Below, one piece after another: positions 3,971 to 24,512 of a stretch of 64,000 bases of DNA; the stretch's first letter is position 1, and each line of letters starts with the position of its first letter. Under the pieces are notes generated by a model. It ran no database searches. It had not been told where the DNA came from and was given only the letters and a program-made list of their open reading frames with translations. The translations under genes were made by a program, and so were the position numbers. The stretch comes from an uncultured Aquimarina sp. (GTDB lineage Bacteria > Bacteroidota > Bacteroidia > Flavobacteriales > Flavobacteriaceae). The stretch covers positions 24,491 through 88,490 of the forward strand of contig CANMSO010000013.1 in assembly GCA_947500545.1 (NCBI GenBank), read 5' to 3'.

Positions 3971-5160
3971 TAATCTTCATATTTTTCCAAAGCCAACCTT
4001 AATATATTTATCGCTTTTTTAAGATCTCTTCGATTTATAACATATGCTATTCTTACCTGATTTGTTCCCACATTTGGGCTAGAATAGAACCCCGAAGCGG
4101 GTGCTAACATAACTGTTTCTTTATTGAAATCAAATTTATCTAAAAGCCATTGTGCAAAATCTTCTGAATCTTTAACAGGTAATTCTGCAATGCAATAAAA
4201 AGCTCCTCTCGGCATAGAAACTTTTACCCCAGGTATTTCTTTAAGTCCTGCAACTAGTGTGTCTCTTCTAGCTTTGTATTTTGCAACGGTTTCTTTATAA
4301 TAAGATTCTGGAGCTTCTAAAGCTGCTTCACTTGCAATTTGGGCAAGAGTAGGAGGGCTTAATCTTGCTTGTGCAAATTTCATTGCTGTCTCGATAACAC
4401 TTTTGTTTTTGCTAACCATGCATCCTATCCTTGCACCACACATGCTATATCTTTTTGATACTGAATCTACAACAATGGCGTGGTCATCCAGACTCTTTTC
4501 TTGAAGAATTGAGTAATGCTCTGATCCATCGTAAACAAATTCGCGATAGACCTCATCAGATATTAAAAATAGATCATACTTGATAGCCAATTTAGCTAGT
4601 TGCTTAATTTCTTCCTTGCTATACAGGTATCCAGTAGGATTTCCAGGATTGCAAATCAAAATGGCTTTGGTTTTTTTCGTGATGAGTTTTTCGAATTCAT
4701 CGATTGAAGGTAGTGCAAATCCTGTATCTATACTAGAAATAACAGGAACAACCTTAACATTAGATTGGGTAGAAAAACTATAATAATTTGCATAAAATGG
4801 CTCTGGTACTATAATCTCATCTCCAGGATCCGTTATGCTGCCCATAGTAAAAATAAGCGCTTCACTACCACCTGTTGTTATCAGAATATCATCAGAAGAA
4901 ATTGTAATATCATGTTTAGCATAATAGCTAGCCAATTTCTTTCTAAAGCTTTCAAATCCAGCAGAATGACTGTATGCAAGAACATCTAGTTTATTATTTC
5001 GGACAGCTTCAATTGCCTCTATAGGTGTTTTTATATCGGGTTGACCTATATTAAGGCGATATATATGCTTGCCTTCTTTTTCTGCTTTTTCTGCAAAGGG
5101 AACCAATTTTCGAATTGGAGATTCTGGCATTGCTTTCCCTTTGCTTGATACTACTGGCAT
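3970..5160 (-). CDS. PLP-dependent class I/II aminotransferase (aspartate aminotransferase-like)
   Basis: LNIGQPD, CNPGNPTG, DEVY and SVSKRYSMCGARIG (PLP lysine). Confidence 0.92.
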   Translation of the reverse strand: MPVVSSKGKAMPESPIRKLVPFAEKAEKEGKHIYRLNIGQPDIKTPIEAIEAVRNNKLDVLAYSHSAGFESFRKKLASYYAKHDITISSDDILITTGGSEALIFTMGSITDPGDEIIVPEPFYANYYSFSTQSNVKVVPVISSIDTGFALPSIDEFEKLITKKTKAILICNPGNPTGYLYSKEEIKQLAKLAIKYDLFLISDEVYREFVYDGSEHYSILQEKSLDDHAIVVDSVSKRYSMCGARIGCMVSKNKSVIETAMKFAQARLSPPTLAQIASEAALEAPESYYKETVAKYKARRDTLVAGLKEIPGVKVSMPRGAFYCIAELPVKDSEDFAQWLLDKFDFNKETVMLAPASGFYSSPNVGTNQVRIAYVINRRDLKKAINILRLALEKYED

Positions 5161-5265
5161 CTGTTATATGGTTTAAAAAATAAATAGGGGTAAATTTCTT
5201 AAAATATTTAAGAAATAGATATATAATTAAGATGAATTTTCAACTATTTTCCTATATTTAGTGGA

Positions 5266-6654
5266 ATGAAGATTTTATTATTAGATTTTTGCCATTTTCT
5301 TAGAAATAAGGTTCTAGTATTGTTTTTGTGTTTCAGCTTTACTGTTTTTTCTCAAGGAGCCTTCAAATTACCTTCTGGGGCAAAAGATGGGAAAATTAAG
5401 TTTGAGCTTGCAAATAACCTAATTATTATTCCTGTATTTGTTAATGGTGTTGAGCTTTCTTTTATCCTGGATTCGGGTGTTGGATCAACAATTATTTTTA
5501 GTGTTGATAATAAAAGTTCTTTAGAACTTAAAAATGCTTCAAAAATTTACCTCAGGGGATTAGGAGATGATGAGCCTGTAGAGGCTATTAAGTCTGTTAA
5601 TAATGAATTTAAAATAGGGAATGCAACTAGTTCGGATCATACAGTTTATCTGGTCTTGGATGAATCTATTAATTTCTCTCCCAGAATGGGTTTCCCAATT
5701 CATGGTATTATAGGATATGATTTTTTCAAAAACTTTATATTAGATATTAATTATACAAAAAGGGTTATAAAAATGAATGAGCCCTCGTCGTATAAATATA
5801 AGAAATGTAAAAAATGTTATGAGACTAATATTAGTTTTGAAGAGCAAAATAAAAGACCATATGTTAAGGCAAAATATAAATCAAAGAATGGCTTTATAGA
5901 TATTATATTGTTACTAGATTCTGGGTCAGGATCCTCATTATGGTTGTTTGAAAACAAAGAAAAAGGTATTCAGGTTTCAGAAAATTCATTTAGAGATTTT
6001 TTGGGGAAGGGTTTTAATGGAGATATTTATGGGCAAAGAACCAAAATCGAAGAGCTTCATCTGGGTGATTTTGTAATGAAAGAAGTTACTACTGCTTTTC
6101 CTGATTCAATCTATATACAAGGTATACCTCTTGATAGGCGACAAGGCTCTCTTGGGGGTAATGTTTTGCGTAGGTTCAATATGATTGTAGATTACCCTAG
6201 TCAAAGAATATCTTTTAAAAAGAATAGTTTTTTCGAAAAACCTTTTCATTATAATATGAGCGGACTTACCATTCAGCATAGTGGTTTTACAACAGTAAAG
6301 AATACCGATGACACTAAAATTTATAGAAGAAGAAATAAAAAGGTAATTGAAAAAGATAGATTGTATCTTGGTTTTAATAGAATAGTAACGGAAAAAACTT
6401 TTGAGTTGTCTAATAATTTTGTGTTACTACCAAAATATGAGATTTCTGATGTTAGACCTGGTTCACCAGCTGATATAGTAGGTTTAAGAAAAGGTGATAT
6501 TATACTAGAAGTAAATAGCCGAAAAGCATATAATTACCAATTATCTGAGCTTAATGATCTTTTTTATTTTGAAGAAGGAAGAAAGATTAAAATGAAAATA
6601 GATAGGTTAGGAGTAGAAATCACCTATGAATTTTACTTGAAAAAAGTCATCTAA
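5266..6654 (+). CDS. Aspartyl protease with two retropepsin-like domains and a C-terminal PDZ domain
   Basis: FILDSG...GIIG and LLLDSG...GSLG motif pairs; VRPGSPADIVGLRKGDIILEVN PDZ signature. Confidence 0.85.
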   Translation: MKILLLDFCHFLRNKVLVLFLCFSFTVFSQGAFKLPSGAKDGKIKFELANNLIIIPVFVNGVELSFILDSGVGSTIIFSVDNKSSLELKNASKIYLRGLGDDEPVEAIKSVNNEFKIGNATSSDHTVYLVLDESINFSPRMGFPIHGIIGYDFFKNFILDINYTKRVIKMNEPSSYKYKKCKKCYETNISFEEQNKRPYVKAKYKSKNGFIDIILLLDSGSGSSLWLFENKEKGIQVSENSFRDFLGKGFNGDIYGQRTKIEELHLGDFVMKEVTTAFPDSIYIQGIPLDRRQGSLGGNVLRRFNMIVDYPSQRISFKKNSFFEKPFHYNMSGLTIQHSGFTTVKNTDDTKIYRRRNKKVIEKDRLYLGFNRIVTEKTFELSNNFVLLPKYEISDVRPGSPADIVGLRKGDIILEVNSRKAYNYQLSELNDLFYFEEGRKIKMKIDRLGVEITYEFYLKKVI

Positions 6655-7235: not shown

Positions 7236-9866
7236 ATGGCTTTAGCTACAAAATATGATGCAAAATCGGTAGAAGAAAAATGGTATAGCTACTGGATGGA
7301 TAATAATTATTTCCATTCTGAAGTAGATGAACGGGAGGCGTATACTATCGTTATTCCCCCTCCAAACGTTACTGGGGTTTTGCATATGGGGCATATGCTT
7401 AATAATACTATTCAGGATGTGTTAATACGTAGAGCCCGTCTTAAAGGCTTTAATGCTTGCTGGGTTCCGGGTACTGATCATGCCTCAATTGCCACAGAAG
7501 CAAAAGTGGTTGCCAAATTAAAGGAGGAGGGTATTAATAAAAATGATCTTACTCGTGAAGAGTTTCTTGAACATGCCTGGGAGTGGACTCATAAGCATGG
7601 TGGGATTATTTTAGAACAGTTGAAAAAGCTAGGAGCTTCTTGTGATTGGGAGCGAACTGCTTTTACTATGGATGACAATTTGTCGGCTTCTGTAATAAAG
7701 GTCTTTGTAGATTTGTACAATAAAGGACTTGTTTATAGAGGATATAGAATGGTAAATTGGGATCCGGAAGCCAAAACCACTTTATCTGATGAAGAGGTAA
7801 TTTATGAAGAGAAACAAGGGAATCTATATTACTTAAAATATAAAGTAGAAGGAAGTGAGGATACACTTACCATAGCTACCACACGTCCCGAGACAATTAT
7901 GGGGGATACCGCCATCTGTATTAACCCAAATGATTCACGATTTACACATTTAAAAGGGAAGAAAGCGATCATTCCTATTGCAAACCGAGCTATTCCTATA
8001 ATCGAGGATGAGTATGTAGATATGGAGTTTGGTACTGGATGTCTTAAAGTTACTCCAGCTCATGACCCTAACGATAAAGTTCTTGGAGATAAACATAATT
8101 TAGAAGTTATTGATATTTTTAACGATGATGCTACACTTAATTCTTTTGGATTGCATTACGAGGGCAAAGATCGTTTTGTAGTAAGGAAAGAAATCATAAA
8201 TGAATTAGAGTCTTTAGAGGTTTTAGAAAAAACAGAAACCCATCTTAACAAAGTTGGGACCAGTGAGCGTACAAAAGCGGTGATAGAACCAAAATTAAGT
8301 GACCAATGGTTTTTGAAAATGGAGGGGCTTGCTAAACCAGCGTTAGAAGCAGTTTTAGAAAAAGATGTAAATCTAGTTCCAGAAAAATTTATTAATACCT
8401 ACCGTCATTGGATGGAGAATGTGAGAGATTGGAATGTATCACGCCAATTGTGGTGGGGACATCAAATTCCAGCTTATTTCTATGGTGATGGGAAAGAAGA
8501 TTTTGTAGTTGCAGAGAGTAGAGAAGAAGCCCTGATTCTGGCAAAGAAAAAAACAGGAAATGATTCTTTAGTAGATTCAGATCTTAAACAAGATCCAGAT
8601 GCTTTGGATACTTGGTTTTCGTCGTGGTTATGGCCAATGAGTGTGTTTAACGGTATTTTAGAACCCGATAATAAAGAAATTAATTACTACTATCCTACTA
8701 ATGATCTTGTGACTGCACCCGAAATTTTATTTTTCTGGGTCGCTCGTATGATTATTGCAGGGTATGAGTATAGAAAAGAAAAGCCTTTTACGAATGTATA
8801 TCTAACGGGTATAGTAAGAGATAAACAGAGGCGCAAGATGTCTAAATCTTTAGGTAATTCACCAGATCCAATAGATTTAATAGCTCAATACGGTGCAGAT
8901 GGTATTAGAGTTGGAATGTTACTAAGTTCTCCTGCCGGCAATGATCTAATGTTTGACGAGGATTTGTGCAAACAAGGTAGTGCATTTGTAAATAAAATAT
9001 GGAATGCCTTTAGGCTTATCAAAGGTTGGGAAGTGGATTCAAGTATTGATCAACCCGAAGCTTCGGCTATTTCAATACAATGGTATAAATCCAGGTTTCA
9101 AAATGCATTAATCGATTTAGAAGACAATTATTCAAAATATCGAATTAGTGATGCATTAATGACCACCTATAAATTGATATGGGATGACTTCTGTAGCTGG
9201 TTGCTTGAAATGATTAAGCCAGCTTATCAGAGCCCGATTGATGCTAAAACATATCAAGAAGTAATTACAATTTTAGAAGAAAACCTTAAGATTTTACACC
9301 CTTTTGTTCCTTTTATTTCAGAAGAGATATGGCAACAAATTACTGAAAGAACACCTAATGAAGCTTTGATAATTGCTGATTGGCCAAAATCTGATGCAAT
9401 TAATGAGAGTTTGATAAAAGAATTTGAAACTGCCTCAGAGGTAATTTCAGGTATTAGAACAATAAGAAAAGAAAAGAACATTTCTTTTAAAGAAACTATA
9501 GAGTTGTGTGTTTTAAATAATGAAAAAGGCGGTACTACTTTTGACTCGGTTATCAGTAAACTTGGAAATCTAACTTCCTTGAATTATGTTGATGGAAAAG
9601 TTGAAGGAGCACTTTCTTTTAGAGTTAAGTCAAATGAATATTTTATTCCGATTTCCGGAGCAATCAATGTAGAAGATGAAATTAAAAAACTCTCAGAAGA
9701 ACTAAAATATACCGAAGGGTTTTTAAAATCTGTTCAGAAGAAATTACAAAATGAGCGTTTTGTTAATAATGCGCCAGATCAAGTTATTGCTAATGAAAGA
9801 AAGAAAGAAGCTGATGCAGAAGCAAAGATAGCTACTCTAAAATCCAGCTTAGAGAGTTTGCAGTAA
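7236..9866 (+). CDS. valS: Valine--tRNA ligase
   Basis: [13 protein letters not shown] (HIGH), KMSKS, C-terminal coiled-coil arm. ATG 7236 preferred over the TTG start in the track. Confidence 0.98.
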
Positions 9867-21354: not shown

Positions 21355-22113
21355 ATGGATATTCCTTTTGAGCCTATTGTTTTTGGTGTTAAAGTGAATA
21401 TCCATTTGGTTTTAGAGTATGCCGCTTTTTTTATCGGTTTTCGGTATTATATCTACTTAAAGAAGAATTCACAGGATGTAATATCATCATCTAATAGATT
21501 ATCAATAATTATAGGTGCAGTTTTCGGAGCCTTTTTTGGTTCTAGAATTGTTGGCTTTTTAGAGAACCCTATACTCTCATTCGGACCAGAATACCTTCTT
21601 TCTATACTTAACTCAAAAACTATTATGGGTGGACTTTTTGGTGGTTTACTTGGAGTAGAGTTGGCAAAAAAAATAATTAAAGAAAAACATTCTTCTGGGG
21701 ATTTGTTTACGTTTCCGATCATTTTGGGAATTATAGTGGGTAGATTAGGCTGCTTTTTATCAGGAATCAATGAGTTCACCTACGGAAAAGAAACTGGCTC
21801 TTTTCTTGGAATGGATTTGGGAGATGGTATAACAAGACATCCTATTGCACTTTATGAAATTATTTTCTTAATCACTTTATGGCTTTTTTTAAAACACATT
21901 CAGAAAAAGTCTATTTATAAAAGCGGGCTACTTTTTCAGTATTTTATGATTTTGTATTTTGTGTTTAGGCTTTTTATAGAATTCTTGAAACCTAATATAT
22001 TTTTGGTCTTAGGGTTAAGTAGTATTCAGTATTTATGTATCTTATGCTTGATTTATTATTGGAAAACAATTCGAGATACATTTTATGCCAACAAGAAACT
22101 ACACGTATTATGA
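21355..22113 (+). CDS. Divergent Lgt-family (prolipoprotein diacylglyceryl transferase-like) membrane protein
   Basis: About 7 TM; GRLGCFLSG, RHPIALYE and FRLFIEF correspond to Lgt motifs; KTIMGG stands where canonical Lgt has SFHGG. Confidence 0.85.
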   Translation: MDIPFEPIVFGVKVNIHLVLEYAAFFIGFRYYIYLKKNSQDVISSSNRLSIIIGAVFGAFFGSRIVGFLENPILSFGPEYLLSILNSKTIMGGLFGGLLGVELAKKIIKEKHSSGDLFTFPIILGIIVGRLGCFLSGINEFTYGKETGSFLGMDLGDGITRHPIALYEIIFLITLWLFLKHIQKKSIYKSGLLFQYFMILYFVFRLFIEFLKPNIFLVLGLSSIQYLCILCLIYYWKTIRDTFYANKKLHVL

Positions 22114-23479
22114 TTTTACATTAAGCTTATGTCCTACCTGTCTTAAAAGAATAGATGCTAAGATAGTTTTTGAAGAAGATAAAGTGTTTATGCTGAAACG
22201 TTGTCCAGAGCATGGTAGATCAAAAGTTTTGATTGCGGATGATATAGAATACTATAAGAGCATTAGAAATTATAATAAGCCTTCAGAATTTCCATATAAA
22301 TTTAATACGACTACAGATTATGGATGCCCTTATGATTGCGGACTGTGTCCAGATCATGAACAACACTCTTGTTTAACTATTATTGAAGTAACTGATCGCT
22401 GTAACTTAACTTGTCCTACTTGCTATGCTTCTTCATCTCCTCACTATGGGAGACATCGTTCTTTTGACGAGATTAAAAAGATGCTTGATACGATTGTTGA
22501 AAATGAAAAAGAACCGGATGTAGTACAAATTAGCGGAGGGGAACCAACTATACACCCCCAGTTTTTTGAAATTCTGGATTACGCCAAACAACTACCGATT
22601 CGACATCTTATGGTAAATACCAACGGAGTTCGTATTGCTAAGGATGTTAAATTCACAGAGCGATTGGCCGGATATATGCCAGATTTTGAAATTTATCTGC
22701 AATTTGATTCTTTACAAGAAGAAGTTCTAAAAAAATTAAGAGGAGAGAATTTAACACATATAAGAAAACAAGCTATACATAATCTTAATCAGTTTAACTT
22801 ATCTACAACTTTGGTGGTTACCTTGGAAAAAGGTTTGAATGATGATCAAATAGGAGAGGTTATTTCGTTTGCTACTAAACAAAAAAGTGTAAGAGGGGTT
22901 ACATTTCAACCTACACAAATTGCAGGTCGATTAGAAGATTTTGATGTGCAAACTAATAGAATAACATTAACCGAAGTAAGAAGAAAGATATTAGAGCAGT
23001 TTCCTATATTTGAATCTGATGATCTTATTCCTGTGCCCTGTAATCCAGATGCATTAGTGATGGGGTATGCGCTAAAAAATGAAGAAGGGATTTTGCCGCT
23101 TACAAGATATATCAATCCTACAGATTTATTGGATAATGGAAAAAATACTATTGTTTATGAGCAGGATGAAGAATTACACGGTAAAGTACTTGAACTTTTT
23201 AGTACGGGTAATTCTGTTGAAAGTGCCTCGGAAAACCTGAAATCCATTATGTGTTGCTTGCCAGAAATTGATGCACCCGATTTGGGTTATGATAACCTAT
23301 TTAGGATTATTATTATGCAATTTGTTGATGCCTATAACTTTGATGTTAGAGCGATCAAAAAATCTTGTGTTCATATTGTAAATAAAGATTACAAGATTAT
23401 TCCTTTTGAAACTATGAATTTGTTTTATAGAGATGATAAACAAGAATATCTAGAAAAACTAAGAAACGAAGTGATATGA
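22085..23479 (+). CDS. Radical SAM protein, tetraether synthase (Tes/MJ0619)-like architecture
   Basis: C16-x2-C19...C40-P-E-H43 N-terminal metal site, C81xxxC85xxC88xxH91 auxiliary motif, C106xxxC110xxC113 SAM cluster, SGGEPT, C-terminal SCVH...IIPF. Confidence 0.85.
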   Translation: MPTRNYTYYDFTLSLCPTCLKRIDAKIVFEEDKVFMLKRCPEHGRSKVLIADDIEYYKSIRNYNKPSEFPYKFNTTTDYGCPYDCGLCPDHEQHSCLTIIEVTDRCNLTCPTCYASSSPHYGRHRSFDEIKKMLDTIVENEKEPDVVQISGGEPTIHPQFFEILDYAKQLPIRHLMVNTNGVRIAKDVKFTERLAGYMPDFEIYLQFDSLQEEVLKKLRGENLTHIRKQAIHNLNQFNLSTTLVVTLEKGLNDDQIGEVISFATKQKSVRGVTFQPTQIAGRLEDFDVQTNRITLTEVRRKILEQFPIFESDDLIPVPCNPDALVMGYALKNEEGILPLTRYINPTDLLDNGKNTIVYEQDEELHGKVLELFSTGNSVESASENLKSIMCCLPEIDAPDLGYDNLFRIIIMQFVDAYNFDVRAIKKSCVHIVNKDYKIIPFETMNLFYRDDKQEYLEKLRNEVI

Positions 23480-23694
23480 TACTAAACACTATCTCTTTAG
23501 AAGGTGGAAATTACGATGCAATAATTTACTTAATTCTATTAATTCTTTTAGGACCACCAATATTCCTTGCTCTTATTGGAGTAATCCTATTCAAAACGCA
23601 ACATCGAAAGGCGGGTAAAGTATTTTTTATTCTCGCCGGAATATATCTTGTTGTAGGGTTAGGAATTTGCGGAGCTCTGATGGTTGGGTTTTAG
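23476..23694 (+). CDS. 72-aa two-TM membrane protein with a single C-terminal Cys
   Basis: ATGA overlap with the radical SAM stop; two hydrophobic helices separated by KTQHRKAGK. Confidence 0.75.
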   Translation: MILNTISLEGGNYDAIIYLILLILLGPPIFLALIGVILFKTQHRKAGKVFFILAGIYLVVGLGICGALMVGF

Positions 23695-24512
23695 ATTCTT
23701 TCTAAAAGGTACATAGTCTCGTTCAGGATTTCATTTTTGGTACTGATTTCAATATTTGGGGCATAAATTTTTGATAGCTCAAATTCATCTGTTTTTTCTT
23801 TTATTGTATATCCATCTATTGAAGAAAAATAAGAATGGGGTATGGTTTGATGTGAAAAAGAGTCATTAGTGTCATTATTACTGTCAAAATAATGTAATAA
23901 ACGGTGGTATACTTCTGTGTTTTCTACTTCTGGCAAGTAGGTTACACTACCCGTAATATCTCCAGGATTTTGTAATCCTTTAAAAATTTGAAATAATTTA
24001 TTCGTCGTTGAGCGGTCTAAAAAGAAGAATACACCTTCGATTAGAATAAACGTAGGTTCCTTTTTGATTAGTGGTTTCAGTGTTTTTATAATTTGATCTG
24101 CAGTATTTTGATTAAAATCCACAGCTACGTACTGAACATCTCGATAGGGTAATTCTCCTTCTTTAGTCCAATTGTCGATTTTCTCTTTTTTATAATCAAT
24201 GATATCTTTTTTATCAATCTCGATTGTAGAAACAGAATCGTTAAACGAAAATTGATACATACTAAAACCTGACCCAAAATTAATCAATGTACCACCCCCA
24301 TTAGTATCAAAAAATGATTTCATATGCTCATAGAAAAAACGATTTCTTATGCTGTGTAAAATGGCTTCATGCTTAGAGATGGTATCCAGAATAGATGGAA
24401 TTATAGCATCTGTTTGTTGATTGTTCCATAATTTTGCAAAATTATCTTTACTTATTTCTTGGTAATGAGACCTGTAAGTTGATACTACGAAGGCGGTTTC
24501 ATGAACTTTCAT
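23691..24512 (-). CDS. Class I SAM-dependent methyltransferase (LCM/TcmP-like)
   Basis: ETAFVVSTYRS, RNRFF, LINFGSGF, VAVDF, ILIEGVFFFL. Confidence 0.78.
   Translation of the reverse strand: MKVHETAFVVSTYRSHYQEISKDNFAKLWNNQQTDAIIPSILDTISKHEAILHSIRNRFFYEHMKSFFDTNGGGTLINFGSGFSMYQFSFNDSVSTIEIDKKDIIDYKKEKIDNWTKEGELPYRDVQYVAVDFNQNTADQIIKTLKPLIKKEPTFILIEGVFFFLDRSTTNKLFQIFKGLQNPGDITGSVTYLPEVENTEVYHRLLHYFDSNNDTNDSFSHQTIPHSYFSSIDGYTIKEKTDEFELSKIYAPNIEISTKNEILNETMYLLERI

Follow-up and report, generated by a model that had tools for sequence, protein, structure and literature searches.

The stretch of DNA considered here (the window) comprises 64,000 nucleotides from an uncultured Aquimarina sp. of the Flavobacteriaceae (GenBank assembly GCA_947500545.1, contig CANMSO010000013.1, positions 24,491 to 88,490 of the forward strand). 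At window positions 21355..22113 (+) it encodes, from ATG to TGA, a protein of 252 amino acids with seven predicted transmembrane (TM) helices. This protein is a Cys-variant paralog of the prolipoprotein diacylglyceryl transferase Lgt and is referred to as LgtL in the following. Its gene is the first in a row of three that are translationally coupled. The second gene (22085..23479, +), the start of which overlaps the stop of the LgtL gene by 29 nt, encodes a radical S-adenosylmethionine (SAM) enzyme of 464 amino acids that resembles the archaeal tetraether synthase Tes, also called GDGT-MAS, and contains the domains PF23545 (Zn_ribbon_HMPTM) and PF04055. Its stop codon overlaps in the sequence ATGA with the start codon of the third gene (23476..23694, +), which encodes a mini-protein of 72 amino acids with two TM helices and a single Cys residue, Cys65, in the C-terminal tail GLGICGALMVGF. 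The codon of Cys65, the proposed lipid acceptor, is located at 23668..23670 (+), 16 residues past a Lys-rich loop. Judged from the comparisons described below, LgtL is a real and strongly constrained Lgt variant in a widespread three-gene cassette, and the cassette points to an undescribed way to attach and remodel a lipid on a dedicated small protein.

LgtL matches the Pfam family LGT (PF01790) with 76.2 bits over amino acids 12-233. With TIGR00544 it reaches 40.6 bits, which is below the equivalog cut-off of 118.9, and with NF000778 it reaches 44.2 bits at a cut-off of 334. An AlphaFold2 model built from 36 diverse relatives consists of seven long helices, with a predicted local distance difference test score (pLDDT) of 93.6 and a predicted template modelling score (pTM) of 0.90. 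The sole clear structural match to this model is E. coli Lgt (PDB 5AZB), which was found by Foldseek with an E-value of 4.9e-6 and a probability of 1.0 and by VIA-align with a Z-score of 13.6 over 239 aligned residues, the runner-up match reaching 6.7. LgtL has an LGT domain and the 7-TM fold known from the E. coli Lgt structures (PDB 5AZB/5AZC). According to the alignment it is shorter than E. coli Lgt, being without the periplasmic head insert. By homology and by a natural fusion to a cytoplasmic enzyme (see below), it has the same topology, with the N-terminus outside and the C-terminus inside.

An earlier note on this DNA had concluded that LgtL is not the housekeeping Lgt, and this conclusion holds. 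The assembly is 99.9% complete and contains three LGT genes including that of LgtL, which is therefore not the only lgt of this genome. One of the two others (275 amino acids; contig C4, 466400-467164) passes both the equivalog cut-off and the inspection for canonical residues, and so does the other one (309 amino acids; contig C13, 7197-8057, minus strand), which lies about 17 kb before the start of the window and has an insert in the head-domain region. The two proteins score 154 and 150.7 bits with TIGR00544, and both retain Y26, H103, R143, N146, E151, G154, R239, and E243 of E. coli Lgt. Two canonical lgt genes are also found in several other sampled Bacteroidota genomes. A canonical Lgt (PF01790, at least 111 bits) is present in all 61 Bacteroidota genomes that were sampled, nine of which additionally encode a low-scoring LgtL-type protein (70-92 bits), and LgtL without a canonical Lgt was found in none of the 61. 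Tree reconstruction by maximum likelihood places 36 LgtL sequences and 18 canonical ones at opposite ends of a single long branch with a support of 100 in the Shimodaira-Hasegawa-like approximate likelihood ratio test (SH-aLRT). In contrast to canonical Lgts, LgtL thus scores below the equivalog cut-off, forms a separate clade, never occurs as the sole LGT gene, and is linked to a radical SAM enzyme and to Cys-containing mini-proteins. General lipoprotein biogenesis is probably served by the two canonical lgt genes and not by LgtL, which is very probably a non-housekeeping enzyme dedicated to its cassette.

Residue signature of the LgtL clade

For the analysis of individual positions, LgtL was aligned with E. 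coli Lgt, the two canonical Lgts of the genome and 20 orthologs from Flavobacteriaceae (21 LgtL sequences including the one from the window). In addition, 119 LgtL representatives, which are mutually at most 50% identical, were obtained from an exhaustive HMMER search. The alignment with E. coli Lgt and the canonical Lgts of the genome confirms two motif replacements that had been read from the sequence before. KTIMGG (amino acids 88-93; 21616..21633, +) is found at the start of TM3 in place of SFHGG/HGGL, with M91 in the column of H103. GRLGCF (amino acids 129-134; 21739..21756, +) replaces GRxGNF in the Lgt signature motif, with R130 corresponding to the retained R143 and C133 standing in the column of N146. 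A further change, which the earlier note did not include, concerns an invariant His residue, His17 (21403..21405, +), at the outer end of TM1, which is located at or next to the column of Y26. The motifs described as retained are indeed present and conserved across the 119 representatives. These are RHPIALYE (amino acids 161-168, comprising R161-H162-P163 and Y167-E168; 21835..21858, +), which is retained from canonical Lgt, and the TM6 sequence YFVFRLFIE (21955..21981, +), in which Y201, R205, and E209 correspond to Y235, R239, and E243.

The replacements are highly uniform. In the H103 column, the 119 representatives have Val (97), Leu (11), Ala (5), Ile (4), Met (1), or Thr (1), and His is found in none of them nor in any of the 21 Flavobacteriaceae sequences. 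Cys occupies the N146 column without exception, both among the representatives (119/119) and among the orthologs from Flavobacteriaceae (21/21), and the clade shares the signature G-R-[ILV]-G-C. His at the position of H17 is present in 110 of the 119 representatives, with a gap in this column in eight of the remaining nine, and it is invariant in the alignment of diverse relatives; its register relative to Y26 varies by one or two residues between alignments. An acidic residue is located one residue ahead of the E151 column in all 119 representatives. Further near-invariant positions that are new compared to Lgt are K88 (kept in 98/119), T/S89 (112/119), E102, K105, and G115-D116.

Many other positions of E. 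coli Lgt are shared. R143 is retained in all 119 representatives and R239 in 116, and the residues of the RHP..YE motif are found in 117 (R195), 116 (H196), 119 (P197), and 116 (Y201 in E. coli numbering) sequences. The E202 column contains Glu in 110 and Asp in nine representatives and is thus acidic throughout, while Y235 is conserved in 116 and an acidic residue at E243 in 113 of them. G142, G145, and G154 are also retained. Mao et al. placed R143, E202, Y235, and R239 in a second phosphatidylglycerol (PG)-binding pocket near the catalytic R143 (PMC4728403), and these pocket residues are kept in 110-119 of the 119 LgtL representatives, together with the adjoining RHP residues. This retention of the residues of the phospholipid-head-group cavity indicates a strong constraint on the LgtL cavity and speaks against a dead scaffold.

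Y26, H103, R143, N146, G154, and R239 have been described as the absolutely required residues of E. coli Lgt (PMC13251419), and Y26, H103, and N146 are each individually essential (PMC4728403, PMC13251419). LgtL from the window keeps R143, G154, and R239 but has His for Y26 (with a register that may be off by one or two residues), Met for H103, and Cys for N146. By alignment, three essential Lgt residues are swapped in LgtL for a different and equally constrained set consisting of His, a mostly aliphatic residue, and Cys, and these substitutions define the clade and are not the result of chance. The earlier note had put its weight on the missing His. Its premise, that H103 is important for catalysis in E. 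coli, is correct, but the argument is weaker than claimed because many genuine Lgts have Tyr, Trp, or Phe at this position, with Tyr or Trp in those of Firmicutes and Actinobacteria (PMC13251419). The changes of N146 to Cys and of Y26 to His are more telling. In at least one published case, a Cys residue at the position of N146 does not preclude Lgt activity, since the Lgt of L. interrogans, which also has Cys there, partly complements E. coli (PMC13251419). The same combination of Y26H and N146C has been published for MSMEG_5408 from Mycolicibacterium smegmatis, which, compared by its published description only, resembles the LgtL clade and is dispensable and not the main Lgt of this organism. 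LgtL is probably a specialised member of the Lgt fold that is still catalytic.

Partners of LgtL and spread of the cassette

The connection of LgtL to the neighbouring radical SAM enzyme, which had been proposed from the window alone, is borne out by perfect co-occurrence, gene overlap, and natural fusion. LgtL is found in 30 of 201 genera of Flavobacteriaceae and the radical SAM enzyme in exactly the same 30, with both genes being adjacent or overlapping in 28 of them. Orthologs from different genera are 50-70% identical for LgtL and 67-80% identical for the radical SAM enzyme. None of the genes flanking the cassette in the window recurs beside it in 20 fetched Flavobacteriaceae loci, so that the trio is the unit that moves and persists. 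In addition, three related metagenomic proteins encoded on different contigs, P0171 (733 amino acids), P0271, and P0272, are in-frame fusions of LGT, zinc ribbon, and radical SAM domains, and the domain order in these fusions is the gene order of the cassette in the window. Together with the published topology of Lgt, with the N-terminus outside and the C-terminus inside, the fusion indicates that the radical SAM domain is cytoplasmic. Apparent fusions in loci with a high GC content, which resulted from a stop-to-stop reading, were rejected because LgtL is encoded in another frame there; only P0171 and its two cluster mates are counted.

The radical SAM enzyme is homologous to GDGT-MAS (MJ0619; PDB 7TOL/7TOM) over its full length, with an E-value of 4.4e-73 for amino acids 11-454 against the sequence of the crystal structure 7TOL. 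The rubredoxin site C16-x2-C19-x20-C40-x2-H43 has a spacing identical to that of GDGT-MAS, and the ligands of the N-terminal [4Fe-4S] cluster (C81-x3-C85-x2-C88-x2-H91) and the radical SAM cluster motif C106-x3-C110-x2-C113 (CX3CX2C) are present as well. The corresponding ligands of GDGT-MAS have been described by Lloyd et al. (PMC9433317), and by this comparison all N-terminal cofactor ligands of the archaeal tetraether synthase are kept. In contrast to archaeal Tes, the enzyme remains below the cut-off of the Tes model NF045702 (296.4 bits at a cut-off of 450). Its top NCBIfam match is TrsS (NF045646; 333 bits at a cut-off of 490), which is listed in the literature only as a selenoprotein family without a described function.

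Differences to Tes are also found in the C-terminal part, where the enzyme has the Cys residues C319, C390-C391, and C428 (in PVPC, a CC dyad, and SCVH, respectively), a set unlike that of Tes, while Met in the column of Met439 is kept; the alignment to the archaeal sequences is uncertain in this region. The CC dyad is present in 29 of 32 LgtL-linked radical SAM enzymes, in one to three of 11 unlinked bacterial ones, and in none of four archaeal ones. The C-terminal Cys pattern as a whole is mostly missing in archaeal Tes and in bacterial homologs that are not linked to LgtL, and it hints at a different environment of the auxiliary cluster in the LgtL-linked enzymes. In the GDGT-MAS reaction, an intermediate is bonded through carbon and sulfur to a sulfide of a cluster (PMC9433317), and since the C-terminal domain of Tes holds the cluster of this carbon-sulfur intermediate, the chemistry of the LgtL-linked enzymes may differ. 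A tree of the radical SAM enzymes separates, with a support of 100, a clade of 36 sequences, 32 of which are LgtL-linked, from archaeal Tes and seven Tes-like enzymes that occur without LgtL in anaerobic bacteria, namely in Chloroflexota, Desulfobacterota, and Sporomusa. The branching within the linked clade ignores phylum boundaries, which suggests horizontal spread.

For the distribution beyond Flavobacteriaceae, a DNA pattern for the radical SAM enzyme motif GCP[YF]DCGLCP was scanned over 185,579 species genomes, which yielded at least 107 stretches, 80 of which were fetched. When the count is restricted to those of the matches listed that have 900 nt or more of sequence upstream, LgtL is encoded beside the radical SAM enzyme in Bacteroidota (8/8), Pseudomonadota (14/15), Cyanobacteriota (2/2), Bacillota (3/5), Acidobacteriota (3/4), Verrucomicrobiota (1/1), Actinomycetota (1/2), and Planctomycetota (1/3). 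Among the same matches it was found beside none of seven Tes-like enzymes of Chloroflexota and none of four archaeal Tes. The trio recurs in at least eight bacterial phyla and in archaea of Marine Group II (MG-II). One of the LgtL representatives comes from the latter, from metagenome-assembled genomes of Thalassarchaeaceae with contigs of up to 296 kb. The MG-II loci L040-L042 encode an LgtL-clade protein (5001-5765), a radical SAM enzyme with a zinc ribbon (5771/5807-7309), and two EF-hand-like proteins (7306-7809 and 7822-8727). Each of these EF-hand proteins downstream of the radical SAM enzyme ends with a C-terminal TM helix and the sequence FGFC or FGLC. Homologs of Lgt were described as not known in archaea in a paper from 2025 (PMC12462473).

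The third member of the cassette, the mini-protein, belongs to no family according to Pfam and NCBIfam searches. Homologs are encoded downstream of the radical SAM enzyme in 20/20 relatives, with one to three tandem copies each. Many relatives have two or three copies of the gene in a row (loci L021, L023, L024, L025, L028, L029, L030, L033, and L037), whereas only one copy is present in the window. The homologs have two hydrophobic helices with a Lys-rich loop between them and a tail such as S-L-G-I-C-G, and their single Cys residue is invariant in 25/25 aligned sequences. According to the positive-inside rule, the Lys-rich loop is cytoplasmic, which puts Cys65, 16 hydrophobic residues further on, into the outer leaflet. 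In lipoprotein signal peptides, a charged n-region is followed by an h-region and the Cys residue. TM2 of the mini-protein resembles this layout in having a positive stretch, about 16 hydrophobic residues, and a Cys residue that is preceded by Leu-Gly and has the same membrane geometry.

Small open reading frames (ORFs) for membrane proteins that have a Cys residue within a TM helix or at its end also follow the radical SAM gene in the wider sample; using a crude filter on loci that are not independent, they were found in 15 of 27 LgtL-linked and in none of 16 unlinked loci among the matches listed. The Cys residue occurs in the motif LN[AGS][AS]C in loci of Bacillota, Acidobacteriota, and Cyanobacteriota, in LLPG[LV]C in several alphaproteobacterial loci, and in GG[IFL]C in loci of Methylotenera (L143) and Azonexaceae (L132).

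Proposed function and alternatives

These features can be combined into a reaction sequence in which LgtL lipidates the Cys residue of the mini-protein and the radical SAM enzyme subsequently remodels the lipid tails. We hold this sequence as a whole only tentatively, with slightly less than even confidence. It starts from an LgtL that functions only within its self-contained three-gene cassette. The central cavity of LgtL would bind a glycerophospholipid via the pair of R130 and R205, Y201, and the RHP..YE motif, and such binding is suggested by the conservation of the two Arg residues along with their hydrogen-bond partners. TM2 of the mini-protein would serve as an internal look-alike of a signal peptide, with the Lys-rich loop inside and Cys65 placed at the outer leaflet after 16 hydrophobic residues. 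LgtL would then move a diacylglyceryl group onto Cys65, which is the candidate acceptor because of its lipobox-like geometry and because it is the only other invariant thiol in the cassette. In this reaction, C133, H17, and K88 may stand in for N146, Y26, and H103, and C133 could either be an S-lipidated covalent intermediate or provide a contact to the acceptor. The radical SAM enzyme would be docked on the cytoplasmic face of LgtL, being fused to its C-terminus in some organisms, where it would take hydrogen from carbon atoms of the lipid tails and create a C-C (or C-S) bond. A mini-protein bearing a macrocyclic or membrane-spanning lipid would result. The more specific version, in which the cassette constitutes a new protein-lipidation pathway of many phyla and MG-II archaea, with LgtL diacylglycerylating the Cys residue of the mini-protein and the radical SAM enzyme welding the acyl ends together or onto a lipid in the opposing leaflet, is conceivable but doubtful.

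Several observations weigh against this proposal. Every mechanistic step is derived from sequence. Y26, H103, and N146 are all replaced, and since each of them is essential in E. coli Lgt, transferase activity could be lost in LgtL. The Lgt active site faces the outer leaflet while the radical SAM enzyme is cytoplasmic, so that the two chemistries must meet across the bilayer, which is plausible for a chemistry at the tail ends. The C-terminal ligands of the radical SAM enzyme are unlike those of Tes, and its radical reaction may thus not be a C-C coupling. The crude filter for small ORFs gave no candidate in 12 of the 27 linked loci, and the proteobacterial small proteins have their conserved Cys residue in the first TM helix, so that the geometry is not uniform. 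Finally, the mini-protein departs from lipoprotein signal peptides in that TM2 is an internal element, the second helix of a hairpin, and in that the residue before Cys is bulky (I/V/T/Y/F) where a lipobox has G/A/S. In addition, the Cys residue lies within the TM helix, with about seven hydrophobic residues after it, and is not followed by a soluble, mature domain. Cleavage of the mini-protein by Lsp appears unlikely.

The earlier note had left two options for LgtL, an altered acceptor or mechanism on the one hand and the mere presentation of a lipid to the radical SAM enzyme on the other. The sequence cannot separate the two, although the single-Cys mini-protein of the cassette favours an altered acceptor. 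The second option corresponds to a reading in which LgtL has no transferase activity and is a membrane subunit that binds a phospholipid and anchors the radical SAM enzyme. The latter would then perform the sole chemistry, such as the formation of a thioether between a tail carbon and the Cys residue of the mini-protein or another modification of the tail. The loss of the three residues that are essential in E. coli (Y26, H103, and N146) is in agreement with such a subunit, the fusion of both proteins fits the role of an anchor, and the carbon-sulfur step of GDGT-MAS puts C-S bond formation into the repertoire of this radical SAM family (PMC9433317). However, an anchor needs neither the near-invariant residues R130, R205, Y201, H162-P163, Y167-E168, and D/E209, which are the polar and PG-cavity residues of Lgt, nor an invariant new Cys residue in the cavity. 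Furthermore, the Cys residue of the mini-protein at the outer leaflet would be distant from the cytoplasmic radical SAM site. We consider this reading unlikely.

It is rather improbable that the cassette makes a free membrane lipid, such as a membrane-spanning or macrocyclic diacyl lipid of the iso-diabolic-acid type or one resembling a branched glycerol dialkyl glycerol tetraether (brGDGT), with LgtL moving or re-esterifying the glycerol backbone and the small proteins being structural. In favour of such a product, iso-C15:0 fatty acids, from which it would presumably be made, are abundant in flavobacteria. The radical SAM enzyme is, moreover, a full-length homolog of Tes, and brGDGT-type lipids were proposed as the products of bacterial Tes homologs by Zeng et al., who counted 456 of these homologs and guessed at brGDGT synthesis (PMC8941075). 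Yet, the linked radical SAM enzymes form a clade apart from archaeal Tes and also from the LgtL-free Tes-like enzymes of anaerobes, the latter being the better candidates for tetraether-type lipids. The cassette is also present in Bacillus, Bradyrhizobium, Massilia, cyanobacteria, and other aerobes for which, to our knowledge, membrane-spanning lipids have not been reported. A free lipid would also leave the invariant single Cys residue and the tandem copies of the small proteins unexplained.

That LgtL is a redundant or low-activity second Lgt for ordinary lipobox prolipoproteins, as presumed for MSMEG_5408 (Y26H, N146C), which has been published as a second Lgt homolog of weak or redundant activity in papers that do not mention a radical SAM partner (PMC13251419; bioRxiv 10.1101/2025.01.07.631728), and as would be compatible with the residual lipoprotein labelling in the MSMEG_3222 mutant, is highly improbable because the genome already has two canonical lgt genes, because the strict linkage to the radical SAM enzyme and the Cys-containing mini-protein and the patchy spread (30/201 genera) are unlike those of a back-up enzyme, and because the residue signature of the clade is separate and highly constrained.

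In the searchable literature, no paper was found that connects a paralog of Lgt to a Tes-like radical SAM enzyme and none that describes the cassette, and Lgt is absent from a review on lipid-modifying radical SAM enzymes published in 2026. According to the prevailing view, Lgt is a single-purpose, essential enzyme and an antibiotic target, and second copies are dismissed as weak or redundant. A large paralog clade under strong constraint that has a Cys residue in the catalytic cavity and is tied to a tetraether-synthase-like enzyme and to putative mini-substrates of its own would give the Lgt fold a second biological role. Most bacterial Tes homologs in our sample would then not be synthases of free lipids such as brGDGTs, which would affect the inference of lipid-biomarker sources from Tes homologs.

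Surroundings of the cassette

A scan for sigma-70 promoters and terminators around the cassette gave fewer sites than were found in shuffled sequences, the sigma-70 scan not being suited to Bacteroidota. In the window, a SAM-dependent methyltransferase of the LCM/TIGR00027 family (23691-24512, minus strand) converges on the cassette from downstream, and the upstream neighbour is a SulP transporter. Both were considered as members of the cassette and rejected, since neither is conserved beside it in 20 relatives.

In 14-15 of the 20 Flavobacteriaceae loci, the cassette is located beside a dus-like gene and a gene for a LolC/E-like permease of the FtsX family (e.g., L019, 587-1801 and 1867-2865), in place of which the window has the SulP transporter. 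This neighbourhood is probably inherited synteny. In one relative (L027, 3771-7673), a 4-kb insert lies between the genes for LgtL and the radical SAM enzyme, which encodes three tandem paralogs of about 281 amino acids with N-termini resembling signal peptides and a protein of 387 amino acids.

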